A stretch of DNA of 64,000 nt from Candidatus Binatia bacterium. GTDB lineage: Bacteria; Desulfobacterota; Binatia; Bin18. Shown one piece after another: positions 19,824 through 26,507 of this stretch (positions are counted from its first letter, which is position 1; every line of letters begins with the position of its first letter). The translations under genes were made by a program, and so were the position numbers. The stretch is taken from positions 998,486 to 1,062,485 of the forward strand of contig OZ246887.1 of assembly GCA_965231765.1 (NCBI GenBank), in the 5' to 3' direction. Below the pieces are notes generated by a model. It ran no database searches. It had not been told where the DNA came from and was given only the letters and a program-made list of their open reading frames with translations.

Positions 19824-21401
19824 ATGACACTCGTAACTTGGTCGTGGTTCTTCCTGGTCATCTATATCGGCGGCATGCTGACCATCGGGGTGTTGGCCCA
19901 GCGGCGCGTCAAGAACGCCGACGATTTTGCCACCGCACGCAGCTCCTACGGCCCGCTATTTCTGGCCCTGGCGTTTTCCGCCACTACGGTCAGCGGGGCA
20001 ACCTTCCTGGGCATGCCGGGGCTGAGCTACACCTGGGGGCTGACCACCATGTGGGGCGTCTTTCTGACCCCGGTCGGCCTCGGTTTGGGCATGTTGCTCA
20101 CCATGCGCCTGATCACCAAGTCCGGGCATCGCTTCGGCAACCGCTCCATCCCCGAGTACCTCGGCGACCGCTACCAGTCCGAAGGCATTCGGGTGCTGGT
20201 GTCGCTGTTCTCCCTGTTGTTGTGTTTCTATCTGGCCGGGCAGCTCGTGTCGGGCCTCGTCATGTTCGAGATTCTGCTGGGTCTGCCGCCGATCTGGGCT
20301 CTGATCATCACCACCACAGTGCTGCTGATTTACGTGGTGCTGGGCGGGGCCCACGCCGACATCATCGCCGATGGGGTCCAGGCCTGCATGATGCTGCTGG
20401 TCGCCATAGTCGTCGTGGTCCTGTTTCTGGTCGGCTTTGGCCTGGAGCTGGGCGAATCGGCCAGAAGCGGATTCCTGGGGCTGGTCGATACTCTGGCCGC
20501 CCAGGACGAACACCTGGTTGGCGTCCTCAACACCAAAACCCCGCTCTATCACTCCTGGTGGTCGATTGCCTCGCTGGTGATCTCGCTCATTCCGCTGGGC
20601 ATGCTGCCCCACCTGGGCAATAAGCTGTGGGCCTTGAGAGACAGCGCCGACCAGGGCCGCTTTCTGGCCTTCACGGTCATCTTCATCCTCACCCTGGCCA
20701 TGCTGGCCCTGGGCGGTCTGCTGGCCCGGGCGCTGATGGGAGACGCCCTGTTTGCCGAGGGAGCGACCTCAAACCACGCCCTACCCCTACTCTTCATCGA
20801 ACTGTTTCCGACCTGGCTGGCGGCGCTCGTCGGGGTCGGCGTGCTGGCCGCCATCATGTCCACCGCAGACGGGCTGGTGGTGTCCTCGTCGCAGACGATC
20901 GCCAACGACCTCTACCGTCTGACCATAGCGCCGAGGTTGAAGCATCCGCCAAGCGAGGCTCAGCTCGACCGACAGGTCTTATACATCAGCCGGGTAGCCA
21001 CGGTGGTCATTCTCGTCCTGTGTGCGGCCATCGCCTGGGCCTGGGTTGAAACCAACGTCATACTGATTGTCTGGATCGGGACCGGCGGCATCATGTCGGC
21101 ATTTGCCGGTTCTCTGGTCTTTGGGGCCCTGTGGCGCGGGGTCACCCGGGTCGGGGCGTATGCCGGCCTGGTCAGCGGCTTTGTCAGCTTTCTAGTCCTG
21201 CACACCCAGCTGCTCAACCCGGCCTGGTTTCCGGCCGGCACCCTGCACGATGTGGTCGCCTGGCTGTACATTGAGGGCGTCAACCCATTTTCCTGCTCGT
21301 CCATTGCCGGTCTGACCTCGGTGGTGTTCACCATCGTTGTCTCCAAAGTGACCCGGCCGCTGCCCGAAACCCACGTCCGGGCGCTTTTTGAGGGTGTTTA
21401 A
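19824..21401 (+). CDS. sodium:solute symporter (SSS) family transporter
   Basis: 525 aa and multi-TM, with an SSS-like N-terminus (DFATARSSYGP..). Very GC-rich third codon positions create long shadow ORFs. Confidence 0.85.
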   Translation: MTLVTWSWFFLVIYIGGMLTIGVLAQRRVKNADDFATARSSYGPLFLALAFSATTVSGATFLGMPGLSYTWGLTTMWGVFLTPVGLGLGMLLTMRLITKSGHRFGNRSIPEYLGDRYQSEGIRVLVSLFSLLLCFYLAGQLVSGLVMFEILLGLPPIWALIITTTVLLIYVVLGGAHADIIADGVQACMMLLVAIVVVVLFLVGFGLELGESARSGFLGLVDTLAAQDEHLVGVLNTKTPLYHSWWSIASLVISLIPLGMLPHLGNKLWALRDSADQGRFLAFTVIFILTLAMLALGGLLARALMGDALFAEGATSNHALPLLFIELFPTWLAALVGVGVLAAIMSTADGLVVSSSQTIANDLYRLTIAPRLKHPPSEAQLDRQVLYISRVATVVILVLCAAIAWAWVETNVILIVWIGTGGIMSAFAGSLVFGALWRGVTRVGAYAGLVSGFVSFLVLHTQLLNPAWFPAGTLHDVVAWLYIEGVNPFSCSSIAGLTSVVFTIVVSKVTRPLPETHVRALFEGV

Positions 21402-21452: not shown

Positions 21453-22271
21453 TTAATCGCCCACGGCGAGCATTTCGGCAATTTCATCGAGATACTCTTT
21501 CAGAGACAATCCGTGGCCTTTTGCCAAAATCGCCAGCGTATCGATCTTTGTCCGCTCTCCCCTTTCGATTCTTCGCACCTGGCGTTCAGAAAGTCCTTGA
21601 ATCTCGGCTTGCTTGATCCCACGCTGCTTGCGCAATGCGGCAACGGTCGCTCCGAATCGAATGTCATACAGCAGTCTTTCGCGTTCCTTTTTCTCACGCC
21701 ACGCATCATCTTTCAGGCAGCGAACCGCGTCAAAATCGATATGGACATCGCCCTCAGGCCAGTGCAGATAACTGCCTTCGCTGGAGATGGTAAATGAAGA
21801 ACGGTGTTGTGCTGGAATGCGCTTCAGGGCGGGCATTTCTTCAAAACCAACTCTGAACAAGCTGTGGTCACAGGCCATGACAAAGAGCTCATCGTGAGTG
21901 ACCTGGGCAGCGGCAATGAGTTGATCCGGACAGCCAAGACTCCAGGCCATGAGCACACGCTTTGGGACCTCTTTCCCCGAGTGGACAAGAATACGTCGGC
22001 TGATTCTGAGTTTTGCCTCATAGAGCATCTGGGGTAAAAACTGAGCGTTGTCGTCTTCTCGGACGAAAAGGGTTCGGAGATGGTTTCGATGACGTACAGC
22101 ACGGACAAACTCACTGACAGCAGGAAGGTCCGCAACAGAGGTGAGCACGAAAATATCCCGAGCGTTTACCTTTTTCAGATCCAGCTTTCGAAAAACGATG
22201 AAAGAAGGCGGAATGATGTCATAGCTAAATGGGTCCTGGGCCCAGACGGTCATTTCAGTAGGCTTTGACAT
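21453..22271 (-). CDS. DUF2442-like domain protein with C-terminal XRE-type HTH
   Basis: ATG at 22271. FTISSEGSYLHWPEGDVHIDFDAV (DUF2442-like) and the C-terminal HTH LSERQVRRIERGERTKIDTL. Confidence 0.6.
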   Translation of the reverse strand: MSKPTEMTVWAQDPFSYDIIPPSFIVFRKLDLKKVNARDIFVLTSVADLPAVSEFVRAVRHRNHLRTLFVREDDNAQFLPQMLYEAKLRISRRILVHSGKEVPKRVLMAWSLGCPDQLIAAAQVTHDELFVMACDHSLFRVGFEEMPALKRIPAQHRSSFTISSEGSYLHWPEGDVHIDFDAVRCLKDDAWREKKERERLLYDIRFGATVAALRKQRGIKQAEIQGLSERQVRRIERGERTKIDTLAILAKGHGLSLKEYLDEIAEMLAVGD

Positions 22272-22273
22272 GT

Positions 22274-22563
22274 TCAGCTCCCTCTCTCTACTTTGGCTTC
22301 CCACTCGATATAAATCGCGTCTCTGTGCCGGAGCACCAAGCTTAAAAGTTCCCGCTGTTCTTTGGGGGAAACTTCATGTTGAAAGCTAATTTTCTGCGTT
22401 TACACGCACCGAAAAGGACGCGTATCTCCCACTTGTCCGGTTTACGGGCGTGAAAATGAGGTGGTTCGTGATCTGAGGAATTGAACCATAGGTCCACACC
22501 GGCCAGTTGAAAACATTCCAACTTTCCCAAAAAGCAGCTCCTCCGCTTTCTCCTAGAGAGCAT
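22274..22563 (-). pseudogene. DUF4160 family gene, frameshifted
   Basis: DHEPPHFHA motif in one frame. The expected C-terminus KEQRELLSLVLRHRDAIYIEWEAKV continues in another frame after the C5A3 run near 22361-22368. Confidence 0.6.
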
Positions 22564-22621
22564 ACTCAAAACCGGACAATAAATCAATTTTGTACATTTG
22601 AAAAAATGTCTGGTAACTGAT

Positions 22622-22774
22622 ATGCGCCGAGATGCTGTATTCGTGTTGAAACACGTGAGCAAGTCACGCGAACCGTTTGTCATCACCCAACGAGGACAAG
22701 CCGCGGCTGTGAAAACTTTACGGCCAAGCTCGCTGGAAAAAAATGAAAGGCTTTGCTACTGTTCGCTCGGTTGA
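22622..22774 (+). pseudogene. possible Phd/YefM-type antitoxin remnant
   Basis: ..VSKSREPFVITQRGQAAAV.. resembles the antitoxin N-terminal core. The remainder is not recognisable. Confidence 0.3.
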
Positions 22775-22871
22775 TGGCACGGTGCACAGGGCTGAGGTGC
22801 ACTGGTACGAAGGACATAGGATTGGACGCAAAGAATTCAAAATCAAATTTCCTTTGCTGGATGAGCTATGA
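22743..22871 (+). CDS. 42-aa mini-ORF (MKGFATVRSVDGTVHRAEVHWYEGHRIGRKEFKIK..)
   Basis: ATG-started ORF below the track threshold. It resembles small proteins I recall from TA-rich loci, which is unverified. Confidence 0.3.
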   Translation: MKGFATVRSVDGTVHRAEVHWYEGHRIGRKEFKIKFPLLDEL

Positions 22872-22992
22872 ATGAGGGGCACGGTAAAAGCACCGTCCTT
22901 TGCGGTGTGCATCAACAATGTAGAGTACAAGGCGTCGCTGGAGGTGGGAAAGCTGTATCCGGAGTAAGCAAACCAAAAAGAGGAGCCTGTGA

Positions 22993-25320
22993 ATGCCAGA
23001 TACGAAGTGGTTGAGTCCGATCATTATGGAACCGGGCAAGCTAAAACGCGAAGCGGTGAAGCGCAGGAAGGCATATCAGGAACTGTCCGTGGAAGAGTCT
23101 GGGATACGCGGTCATCTTGATGACGGGTGGGAGATTGACAGAGAGCTAAAAAGAAAAACTCGATTACGAAAGCGGTTGTCTCATGACCAAATACTTGAAA
23201 ATCGAGTCTGGTACCTCTTCTATCTACTCGGATATCCTGAAATAAGTTCAGGAAGGAATTTCCAAATCACAATCCACCGTAAAAGTGCGGACCCTTATAA
23301 GAAGCAAATTGATGTTCTAGCTAAGGATGACGAAACGGTCATTGTCACAGAATGTAAATTATCTGACCATATTTATCGCCGAAGCCTACAAAAAGACGTT
23401 GAGGAGTTTTCTAACCTCAAAGGACCTATTTCCAGTGCGATAAAGAAACACTACGGACCTGACTTCAAACCAAAGATAATTTGGCTCTTTGTAACAAACA
23501 ATATCGTGTGGTCAGATCCTGATAAACAGAGAGCCGCTGGAGCAAAAATTGATGTAGTTACGGAGAGGGAGCTCAGTTACTACTTGCAGATAGCTGACCA
23601 CCTCCGTTCAGCAGCGCGATTTCAGTTTCTCGCGGAGTTCCTTAAGACTCAGAAAATCCCCGAGATGGAGAATGTACGCGTCCCTGCTGTCAAGGGAAAG
23701 TTAGGTGGTAAGGTTTTTTACTCATTCGTCTCAACTCCAAGACAAATGCTGAAAATATCATTTGTGAATCATCGATCTCTCAGCGATCCTAGCGGAGCAC
23801 CATCTTATCAGCGCCTTGTCAACAGAACGCGACTTCGTTAGATCTCGCAATTTATTTACGATGGCGGTTTCTTCCCTACCAACATCTTGGTGAACTTTTC
23901 AGAGAAATGTCGGTTTGACCCTATGGCGAAGGATAGCGACAATAACGTCACTTTTGGAAACCTCCACCTCCCATGCCGATATAGATCAGCTTGGATTATT
24001 GATGGACAGCACCGTCTTTATGGTTACGCCCCTTTGTCTGATGAACATCTGAACCAGAACATTATGGTCGTTGCGTTTGAGGAGTTGAAAAAAGAAGAAG
24101 AGGCGAATCTCTTTGTTACGATCAATCATGAACAGAAGTCTGTTCCCAAAACATTGCTGGACGACTTGGAGGGTGAGCTTAAATGGGGATCTACTCGTCC
24201 GACGGAAAGAATAGGAGCAATCAGTGCGCGTCTCATTGGGCTTCTCAATAACGATGTTGGAGAAGCACTGTACCAACGTGTCACACGGCAAGGTATCCCC
24301 CCATCGGAAAAGACATGTCTTACAGTGCCAGCGTTGAAGGACGGACTTCGTCGGTCAGGACTCGTTGGGCAAGCTATTCTCAAAAAGAAGGAGTATGCTC
24401 CTGGCCCCCTTTGCGGAACTGGGGATTCGGAGACACTGGATAGAGCACGCGTGGTCCTGAACAGCTATCTTCAGCTCCTTGCAAGCGCAAATCCCAAACA
24501 ATGGGAAGCAGGCCGGAAGGGATATCTCTGTACGAATACGTCCCTGCAAGCTTACCTGCAATTGCTTGGCGCCACAATCAGCTACATGGAGTCCAACAAA
24601 GGGCTCTCGGCTAGGGAACTTGAACCTAGTGAGATCATCGCTGAGATAGAGGAATACATTGATCCTATCCTCAAGTGGTTGGCCAAAGCATCCCCTGTAC
24701 AAATGGAGAAGGAATTCAAGGTCCAGTTTGGCTCTGGAGGCCCTAGAGAGTACTTCTATCGGCTCTGCCAAATGATCCGCAATGAATTTTCTGACTTCTC
24801 ACCGGAAGGAATTGACGAGTGGACAGAAGAACAATCAGAAGAGCGCGTTGCAGATGCGGATAAAAAACTCAAGGATCTCAACATCCAAGTGCAAAAGACA
24901 ATTTTCGACATTTTCAAACAGCAGTATGGTGCGAGCGGTGATTCATACTGGAACAAGGGAGTCCTGGATAAGAAAATTAAAATACATGCGTACGAGAAAT
25001 CCCAAGATGATGATGACGAAGATCGTCTACCCCTCGAAAACTATCTGGACTTCATCGAATATAAGAAGATCGTAGAAAACAAGACTCATTGGCCCCTATT
25101 CAAATCCATTTTCGACATCCCGGACCCAGGCGAGAAGGGTTATACCAAGAACATCCGATGGATGGAACGTGTCAATGAACTTAGGCGGATTCCTGCCCAT
25201 CCCACAGAGAAACGTCGCTACAAGGCAAGTGACTTTGAATACATTGACTATATCCATGAAAAATTCATCAGTTGTGTCAAGACAGCTAACCTCAGTTCTG
25301 TGAAGGTAAACGGTGAGTAA
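22993..25320 (+). pseudogene. PD-(D/E)xK + DGQHR (DndB/ParB-like) + Rx4H-tail fusion protein, interrupted by one in-frame TAG (23839-23841)
   Basis: Track ORFs 22993-23841 and 23887-25320 are in the same frame. Read-through gives ..YQRLVNRTRLR*ISQFIYDGGFFPTNILVNF.., a contiguous DGQHR-family core. The DGQHR motif is at 24001-24015. Confidence 0.7.
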
Positions 25321-26155
25321 CATAGTTCCCGTTCTAAAATGGGCTGGGGGGAAACGCTGGTTTGTGGCACAGTACTCAGCATTGCTACGTCGAGATGCAA
25401 TCAGGTATTTGGAGCCCTTCCTTGGTAGCGGAGCTATTTTCTTTCATACCAAACCTCAGCGGGCAATACTAAGTGACTTGAACCAGGAACTAATTGCAAC
25501 CTACGAGTCGCTACGTGACGAGCCGCAAGAGGTATGGAAGTATCTTTGTTTCCACGGACAAAAACATAGTAAGGAGTATTACTATCTTGTTCGGAGTCAG
25601 AAACCACGCACCTCAGCTCGGCGGGCAGCAAGATTTATCTATTTGAATAGGACCTGTTTCAACGGACTCTACCGTGTTAATCTCCAAGGCGTGTTCAATG
25701 TACCAAAGGGAACAAAAGATACGGTTATTCTCCCTACTGATGACTTTGGGCTTGTCTCCAAGATCTTACAATCATCATCTCTAACATCGCGAGATTTCTC
25801 ATACACCATTACAGAGGCAACGGAAGGCGACCTGCTATACGTTGACCCGCCGTACACTGTGCGTCATAACAATAACAACTTCCTCAAGTATAATGAGTGT
25901 ATCTTTTCTTGGCGTGATCAGAGACGCCTAGCCGATTGTCTCCTCCAGGCGGCGAAACGTGGTGCTTGCATACTAATGTCAAATGCAGATCACCCATGCA
26001 TCCATGACTTGTACAGTGACAGAGTCTGGCAACGCCTTTCTGTTAGCCGATTCAGCCGTCTAGCTTCATCTGCGAAACATCGCAAAGAGACCACGGAACT
26101 AGTAATTTCCAATTACTTGAACAAGCATGCTGAACAAGTATATCCACGGTCTTGA
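25313..26155 (+). CDS. Dam-class (alpha) N6-adenine DNA methyltransferase
   Basis: KWAGGKRW, FLGSGAIFF (FxGxG) and LLYVDPPYT. GTG start overlaps the upstream TAA stop. Confidence 0.9.
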   Translation: MSNIVPVLKWAGGKRWFVAQYSALLRRDAIRYLEPFLGSGAIFFHTKPQRAILSDLNQELIATYESLRDEPQEVWKYLCFHGQKHSKEYYYLVRSQKPRTSARRAARFIYLNRTCFNGLYRVNLQGVFNVPKGTKDTVILPTDDFGLVSKILQSSSLTSRDFSYTITEATEGDLLYVDPPYTVRHNNNNFLKYNECIFSWRDQRRLADCLLQAAKRGACILMSNADHPCIHDLYSDRVWQRLSVSRFSRLASSAKHRKETTELVISNYLNKHAEQVYPRS

Positions 26156-26507
26156 AAATACAGGCATTTTTCATTCTTCGCTCCTCGGTGTCAGATATGG
26201 AAGAAAGCACAAGGCACAAACATACCTGGAGTAATTCGATTTTACTGAATAGTCATCAGGAAATGCTCTAACAGGGACTCGCAATAATTCGGACTGCTGA
26301 AGCTGCCATCAGAGCCAGTATAGAGCGGTTGGATTGGTCACGCAGAGAGGCTGTCGGGTTACGCTCTGCTAATCTGACCTACGGCCGAAAGGGCAGGGCA
26401 GGGTGGTAAAGAGTCGCGGCATGCTCCTAGGCGCCCGAGATCGCCTAGTCAAGGCGGGAGACAATTGGTATGGTCTACCCGACAGAGCACACATAAGGAG
26501 GCGCAAC

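Follow-up and report, generated by a model that had tools for sequence, protein, structure and literature searches.

The 64,000-nucleotide stretch of DNA analyzed here (the window; Candidatus Binatia bacterium, contig OZ246887.1, positions 998,486 to 1,062,485) contains a two-gene segment at 22993 to 26155 that is probably a mobile cassette of the restriction-modification (R-M) type, the restriction or effector subunit of which is unusual in having three domains. The first gene (22993..25320, + strand) encodes a protein of 775 amino acids (aa) in which a PD-(D/E)xK nuclease domain, a DGQHR/ParB-like module and a HEPN-like domain are predicted to be fused, and the second (25313..26155, + strand) encodes an intact 280-aa N6-adenine DNA methyltransferase of the Dam family (D12 class), as assigned by profile matches. 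In this genome the large gene carries a nonsense mutation. Should the large protein be a restriction subunit, no earlier R-M nuclease would have its design, with a core DGQHR/ParB-like module that binds nucleoside triphosphates (NTP) and an added HEPN domain. The pair also offers a simple two-gene model for the role of ParB-like NTPase domains in immunity based on DNA modification, as in DndB, DpdB and the GmrSD-type enzymes.

A preliminary description of this DNA had read through an internal stop to a 775-aa frame made up of a nuclease-like core, a DGQHR core and a C-terminal HEPN region, followed by a methyltransferase with KWAGGK, FxGxG and DPPY motifs whose GTG start overlaps the TAA of the first gene. 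We find the frame, all of the quoted motifs and the overlap to be present. Translation of 22993-25323 gives a single internal stop in the 775-codon frame, the TAG at 23839..23841 (+ strand, codon 283). The methyltransferase starts with the GTG at 25313 within ...GGTGAGTAA, resulting in an overlap of 8 nucleotides (nt) with the TAA of the large gene at 25318-25320, and an AAGG lies a few bases 5' of this GTG. The stop/start overlap would be expected to couple the expression of the two genes.

The nuclease-like nature of the N-terminal core is well supported by our data. The predicted PD-(D/E)xK domain of the restriction-endonuclease fold spans aa 64-216 (23182..23640, + strand) and was recognized through Foldseek, Pfam matches in relatives and model topology. 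The structure model used was an AlphaFold2 model of P0006, a protein of the same length that is 79% identical to the window protein (predicted local distance difference test score [pLDDT] 81). It displays an alpha-beta-beta-beta-alpha-beta core (helix 64-78; strands 83-94, 102-111 and 115-129; helix 133-154; strand 161-172) in which consecutive strands hold D107 and E120-x-K122, and its top PDB matches in Foldseek are the nuclease domains of Cdn1 (E 6e-5), VC1899 (4e-4), Can2 (3e-3), Card1 and AF1548. N-terminal fragments of 20 diverse relatives matched the Pfam families Hjc (13/20), Card1_endonuc (10/20, best E 2.4e-6) and NERD (8/20), and relatives also matched the PADLOC models for CARF_PDDEXK and the Mrr-like nuclease of ZorD. 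The core residues are encoded at 23197-23199 (E69), 23311-23313 (D107) and 23350-23358 (E120-C-K122). Counted over 128 diverse full-length relatives with 25-50% identity, D107 and C121 are each kept in 96%, D112 in 93%, E120 in 88% and K122 in 74%, with E69, D107 and E120 all falling between 88 and 100%. The conservation of E69, D107, E120 and K122 is compatible with metal-dependent DNA cleavage by the predicted nuclease. A full-length family profile run against PDB sequences gave no meaningful match, and hence no solved restriction enzyme is similar by sequence.

The central part of the protein (aa 232-526; 23686..24570, + strand) is a DGQHR module of the ParB/Srx superfamily, as had also been proposed in the preliminary description. 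It scores above the curated cut-offs of both TIGR03187 (144.3 bits versus 58.85, E 6e-42) and Pfam DndB PF14072 (46.4 bits versus 29.1). The DGQHR-type signature consists of a QR pair, a near-invariant DGQHR and an FxxxN motif (PMC4619093), and these are found here as YQR (Y272-Q-R274; 23806-23814), the pentapeptide D337-G-Q-H-R341 (24001-24015) and FVTIN (F374-VTI-N378; 24112-24126), all on the + strand and each 100% conserved in the 128 relatives. The equivalog cut-offs of DndB (TIGR03233, 25.4 bits versus 328) and DpdB (NF041060, 64.4 bits versus 300) were missed widely, and the module therefore forms its own branch within the DGQHR family. The search of the PDB with the whole P0006 model gave matches to nuclease domains only and none to a ParB/Srx fold. 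The sole long low-confidence parts of this model (pLDDT < 50), residues 256-276 and 382-395 (window ~23758-23820 and 24136-24177), overlap highly conserved family sequence, HRSL..P.GAP.YQR with the YQR motif in the first stretch and EQKSVPKTLLDDLEG in the second. As a speculation, these residues would fit loops that become ordered upon ligand or DNA binding.

The relation to DndB and DpdB raises the question of whether the large protein could be an accessory or regulator of the methyltransferase, acting like DndB, the repressor of the dnd operon, or like DpdB, with its nuclease-like and HEPN-like parts serving as non-catalytic binding modules. Dam-class enzymes act alone, however. The module does match DpdB best (64 bits with the NCBIfam model; 67-107 bits with PADLOC in relatives), followed by DndB; DpdB is an ATPase required for modification, i.e., base insertion (PMC10164549), DndB is described as an ATP-modulated regulator (PMC4507180, PMC10853773), and it has also been described as a combination of ParB-like and HEPN domains (PMC3632139). 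Like these stand-alone proteins of the phosphorothioation and 7-deazaguanine systems, the large protein matches the DGQHR model over residues 230-526 and the DpdB and DndB models weakly, but both scores are far under the equivalog cut-offs, an extra N-terminal nuclease domain is present, dnd or dpd genes are lacking nearby and the partner is an ordinary N6-methyladenine (m6A) methyltransferase. Furthermore, the retention of E69/D107/E120/K122 and of the C-terminal Rx4H motif over deep divergence is unexpected for purely structural modules, and disruption of the large gene beside an intact methyltransferase is the pattern of a toxic partner and not that of a helper. We consider an accessory role to be quite unlikely, and of the rivals it is the one that fits the conserved catalytic residues least well.

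The C-terminal part of the large protein (aa 600-775; 24790..25317, + strand) is all helical and is probably a HEPN-like domain of the Swt1/Abi2 type, judging from Pfam matches in relatives, the motif and the model. Among 23 diverse relatives, 13 had C-terminal fragments that matched Pfam HEPN_Swt1 (PF18731; best E 3e-7), with weaker matches to the Apea, Abi_2 and Csm6 HEPN models. The HEPN-type motif Rx4H is present as RRIPAH (R731-x4-H736; 25183-25200, + strand) within the family consensus W..LN.IRNxxxH; its arginine is found in 81% and its histidine in 78% of the 128 relatives, and both are invariant in alignment A3. The AlphaFold2 model of the domain is all-alpha with a pLDDT of 92.

The methyltransferase contains KWAGGK (25337-25354), the AdoMet motif FLGSG (FxGxG; 25418-25432) and the catalytic DPPY (25844-25855), and it scored 224.1 bits against TIGR00571 Dam (cut-off 114.85), 160 bits against Pfam D12 PF02086 (cut-off 22) and 310 bits against PADLOC MTase_II. 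It is not an orthologue of E. coli Dam (EcoDam), since its score with NF008152 is 139.9 bits against a cut-off of 441. The nearest solved structures are DpnM (E 4e-47) and then EcoDam (6e-29), both of which methylate GATC. In EcoDam, the residues that contact the GATC bases are K9, Y119, N120, L122, R124, P134 and Y138 (PMC4417163), and in the window enzyme K9, N120, L122, R124 and P134 are identical while Y119 is replaced by F and Y138 by K. The most likely target is GATC, because DpnM and EcoDam are the nearest solved relatives and the contact residues are mostly identical.

The family to which the large protein belongs is large, spans many phyla and is absent from PADLOC-DB v2.0.0. A word-index search returned more than 2,600 relatives, of which the best 120 are nearly all ~775 aa long with 60-80% identity and come from Desulfobacterota, Verrucomicrobiota, Acidobacteriota, Actinomycetota, Ignavibacteria and others. 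When a profile was run exhaustively, 3,327 representatives were recovered at E<=0.001, and at E<=1e-30 there were 751 clusters (50% identity). Nearly all are 750-790 aa long and align over their whole length. Public annotation of the family is limited to "DGQHR domain-containing protein" or "DndB." No dedicated full-length PADLOC model matched the window protein or 10 diverse relatives, and the matches obtained were at the domain level only (DpdB, DndB, CARF_PDDEXK, ZorD nuclease, PDC-M34B and PDC-S26). In a phage genome collection we found no full-length members and only stand-alone DGQHR domains, and on plasmids there were five full-length members, all distant (30-32% identity).

The family is linked to R-M systems by its neighboring gene. 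We read gene linkage in 80 loci from species-representative genomes, 78 of them complete, and an N6-adenine methyltransferase is adjacent in ~76 of the 78 complete loci, the two without one being L071 and L078. The methyltransferase is of the Dam class in 62 loci, and in 57 of these it lies directly downstream on the same strand (median gap, 26 nt). At the corresponding position, nearly all other complete loci encode either an MT-A70-like (DPPW) methyltransferase or a 377-aa one that is D12-like but distinct. No third conserved neighbor gene was found in the loci examined. The tree of the large protein shows several exchanges of the methyltransferase family, a pattern to be expected if the two genes function as an R-M pair.

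The tolerance of three methyltransferase families is also of relevance for a different model, in which the large protein is a modification-sensing, "licensed" effector whose DGQHR module reads the methyl mark of the partner and activates the DNase and/or HEPN RNase on infection in an abortive-infection-like manner; SspE, for comparison, senses phosphorothioate. Such swapping would be easier if the large protein reads m6A generally and not one sequence, a HEPN RNase-like domain is present, and the ParB-like DUF262/DGQHR domains of GmrSD-type enzymes have been tied to modified DNA and NTP use (PMC4619093). No direct evidence points to a licensed effector, however, Pfam scans gave no m6A-reader domain (e.g., RAMA, SRA or YTH), and the obligatory, overlapping order of restriction gene and then methyltransferase gene is the classical pattern of protective methylation. 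We therefore regard sensing of the partner's mark as unlikely.

In the R-M mechanism that we propose, the methyltransferase would mark and protect host DNA, probably at GATC, and the large protein would be the restriction or effector subunit, with the PD-(D/E)xK domain cutting unmodified DNA. The HEPN domain of characterized HEPN proteins works as a dimer, and the HEPN-like domain here could likewise dimerize the enzyme, with RNA cleavage as a possible second effector activity. The DGQHR module might be an NTP-binding switch or a DNA-engaging regulator of the nuclease, by analogy to the ParB-like ATPases DndB and DpdB and to the DUF262 of GmrSD; a DndB-like protein binds ATP and GTP (10.1101/2025.10.10.680097), and the homologous motif in GmrS has a predicted NTPase role (PMC4619093). 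A more specific version, which we put forward tentatively and think more doubtful than probable, is that within this single polypeptide a ParB-type NTP-gated switch couples the recognition of unmethylated (probably GATC) DNA to both the PD-(D/E)xK DNase and the HEPN RNase. If true, restriction and an abortive-infection-like backup would be united in one enzyme, and the family would constitute a widespread, uncharacterized class of R-M systems.

Several results weigh against an R-M cassette with a catalytically active large subunit. Activity as a nuclease, NTPase or RNase is in each case a prediction, and the nearest characterized DGQHR proteins, the regulator DndB and the modification helper DpdB, are not nucleases. 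K122 is substituted in 26% of the relatives, and the Rx4H residues are absent from ~20%. The C terminus of P0006, which is 73% identical to that of the window protein, had no Pfam HEPN match at E<=1, a Foldseek search of the C-terminal model against the PDB gave nothing at E<1 (top TM-score 0.51 for the AbiF HEPN 8vz6, E 3.9), and the profile search of PDB sequences with the C-terminal domain was negative. Since neither the fold search nor the PDB profile search was significant, the HEPN call rests on the Pfam matches of relatives and the motif, so that the HEPN claim of the preliminary description holds at the level of motif and family and is not reproduced at the level of fold. The swapping of methyltransferases could mean that the large protein does not itself recognize a particular sequence. 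Avoidance of GATC as a footprint of a GATC-specific nuclease was considered and rejected, with an observed/expected ratio in the window of 0.87, mid-range among 4-mer palindromes. Finally, of the two associations envisaged for homologues in the preliminary description, that with methyltransferases was found, but enrichment in defense islands was not demonstrated, the nearest flanking open reading frames (ORFs) of the 80 loci being mostly housekeeping genes, with a few that are defense related or mobile (resolvase, Fic/SoFic, HARE-HTH, mad3/mad8 and a Type III methyltransferase). Because the flanking genes are mostly housekeeping, the pair behaves as a self-contained cassette and not as a resident of large defense islands.

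Several known systems resemble the cassette in part. The two adjacent, co-oriented genes, including a D12-class m6A methyltransferase nearest to DpnM, resemble DpnII (R.DpnII and DpnM), and a PD-(D/E)xK-type nuclease partner in a mobile, compositionally foreign cassette is a trait shared with DpnII-like Type II R-M systems; unlike in DpnII, the nuclease partner has ~775 aa and added DGQHR/ParB-like and HEPN-like domains. GmrSD, BrxU and SspE (DUF262 plus DUF1524 HNH) also have a ParB/Srx domain with DGQ(Q/H)R, the QR pair and FxxxN fused to a DNA nuclease (PMC4619093), whereas the nuclease here is PD-(D/E)xK and not HNH, the module is of the DGQHR (TIGR03187) branch and not DUF262, a HEPN-like domain is added and the gene has a methyltransferase as its obligatory partner. 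This obligatory pairing indicates that the logic of the cassette is not that of a Type IV (modification-dependent) system. The type III CRISPR CARF effectors Card1, Can2 and Cdn1 are the nearest structural and profile matches of the nuclease domain and likewise fuse a nuclease to a ligand-binding regulatory domain, but the large protein has no CARF domain or CRISPR context, and its regulatory module is ParB-like.

The idea of such fusions is not new, since it has been noted in general terms in two earlier surveys. Makarova et al. described frequent fusions of HNH, PD-(D/E)xK and HEPN domains to the ParB-like core of COG1479/DGQHR proteins, together with links to modification systems (PMC3632139). 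Anantharaman et al. (2013, PMC3710099) listed a HEPN domain of the Swt1/Abi2 clade fused to ParB (table entry "ParB (Saro_3948)") and observed that within R-M systems it is the restriction subunits, and not the methylases, that carry fused HEPN domains. The large protein probably shares with these fusions the combination of a ParB-like domain and a Swt1-type HEPN in an R-M context, but the PD-(D/E)xK part, the ~775-aa architecture and the methyltransferase pairing are not described in that entry (PMC3710099). Our literature searches found no paper that describes the large-protein family, with its three-part architecture, size and m6A methyltransferase pairing, or that tests a member, in agreement with the preliminary description, whose author knew of no characterized system with this architecture. 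Membership of Saro_3948 in the family was not confirmed, as the homologue on plasmid pNL1 carries new-style locus tags only. This homologue (L082; Novosphingobium aromaticivorans plasmid pNL1, NC_009426.1 118850-125348) is full length and 32% identical, has no adjacent methyltransferase and adjoins genes for an ATP-binding protein, a radical SAM protein and, on the opposite strand, another protein with a DGQHR domain; the locus may be a different DGQHR-based modification system.

As far as can be judged from the sequence, the large gene is inactivated in this genome by the stop codon while the methyltransferase is intact. Two other sampled copies carry CAG (Gln) in place of the window TAG, and a complete 775-aa allele exists in P0272 on L086. 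The window protein differs from P0272 by S123L, Q283*, N314D and E757K, of which S123L (beside the catalytic Lys), Q283* and E757K are private to the window when both P0272 and the family consensus are considered. An assembly error is an unlikely cause of the TAG substitution at codon 283, and a function of the TAG as a recoding signal was ruled out by the CAG in the two near-identical copies and the Q in homologues. The methyltransferase in the window retains its conserved residues and is probably an orphan beside a decaying restriction-like gene. The smaller, practical message for the source genome is thus that of a restriction-like gene that appears to be dead and a methyltransferase that probably stands alone. 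A +1 G frameshift in L001 was considered as an independent inactivation and rejected; it is located in a homopolymer on a 3x contig, is absent from L086 and is probably an assembly error.

Split large genes were also seen elsewhere in the family. Frameshifts or stops divide the gene in ~7 of the 78 complete loci (L041, L042, L045, L053, L065, L070 and L079), where the methyltransferase is usually intact, although that of L053 is also frameshifted. Such splits could mean that a toxic gene has been inactivated repeatedly, or they could be errors of long-read assembly, and we draw no conclusion from them because several come from long-read metagenome-assembled genomes.

The cassette is part of an AT-richer inserted segment of 3.7 kb (22712..26437, without strand) that is absent from close relatives, as determined by GC content and by alignment to the contigs L083, L084 and L085. 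The bounds of the insert follow from this alignment, in which the window matches L085 as far as 22711 and the match to L083/L084 resumes at 26438. In two close relatives, L083 and L084, with flanks that are ~99% identical, the site is empty, with a DUF2442-HTH gene followed by a luciferase-like monooxygenase gene and 192 unrelated nt instead of window 22676-26437. L085 has a complete phd/yefM gene (81 aa) and different cargo at the same site, and the transporter protein encoded upstream is identical to that of the window in all three contigs. A 5' fragment of a phd/yefM antitoxin gene (22598..22711, + strand; Pfam PhdYeFM_antitox positions 1-38 of 74) is cut off at the left junction of the insert, and by this alignment the insertion of the segment is what truncated phd.

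The composition of the segment, estimated by eye in the preliminary description as low-to-mid 40s % GC against mid 50s, was computed as 45.9% versus 54.0 +/- 1.9% in equally long, non-overlapping windows (minimum 49.5%), making it the stretch with the lowest GC and the largest tetranucleotide deviation within the 64 kb. GC at third codon positions (GC3) is 0.45-0.48 in the segment, 0.63 in the downstream genes and 0.83 in the upstream transporter gene. Between the window and the L001 strain, the cassette (22993-26155) has diverged by 0.28% (9/3163 nt) and the flanks by 1.39% (36/2598 nt; Fisher p = 2.6e-6), and this ~5-fold lower divergence suggests recent spread of the cassette or its recombinational exchange within the population. 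No flanking repeats, tRNA genes, promoters or terminators were found above chance at the borders of the island. The cassette is best read as horizontally acquired, as had been proposed in the preliminary description, and mobile, because of the empty sites in relatives, the anomalous composition and the low divergence between strains.

Also in agreement with the preliminary description, the segment lies next to toxin-antitoxin debris, which comprises the truncated phd/yefM, a DUF4160 ORF (22342-22686, - strand) and a DUF2442-HTH fusion ORF (21453-22304, - strand), the latter two being toxin-antitoxin-like remnants. From the comparison of strains, the insertion site is a hot spot that varies between strains and in which such remnants abound. 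A compact two-gene unit that sits among housekeeping genes at a site of this kind, and that is spread over many phyla at 60-80% identity, could be a purely selfish addiction cassette that persists by post-segregational killing without meaningful phage protection. Type II R-M systems show both restriction and addiction behavior, however, so that addiction does not exclude restriction, and the sequence offers nothing that separates the two; we think it very unlikely that the cassette is an addiction unit and nothing else.

The other cargo seen at this site in relatives is either a 192-nt HigA-like fragment (assigned by eye from the sequence) or the complete phd together with a 382-aa unknown gene. 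Two small ORFs within the insert of the window, at 22743-22871 and ~22872-22965, are counted among the toxin-antitoxin-like remnants as well. In Acidobacteria loci, including L023, L027, L041 and L053, the PADLOC model for mad8 matched four flanking ORFs (best E 2e-36) and that for mad3 matched two, mad3 and mad8 being components of the MADS system. A likely source of the mad8 matches is a 196-aa ORF 3' of the methyltransferase in four loci, and the association could be local to one clade. The upstream transporter, which had been noted as very GC rich in the preliminary description, is a sodium:solute symporter gene (19824-21401) with 63% GC, a compositional outlier opposite in direction to the segment. 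A paralogous symporter fragment with 75% identity is found at the variable site of L085.

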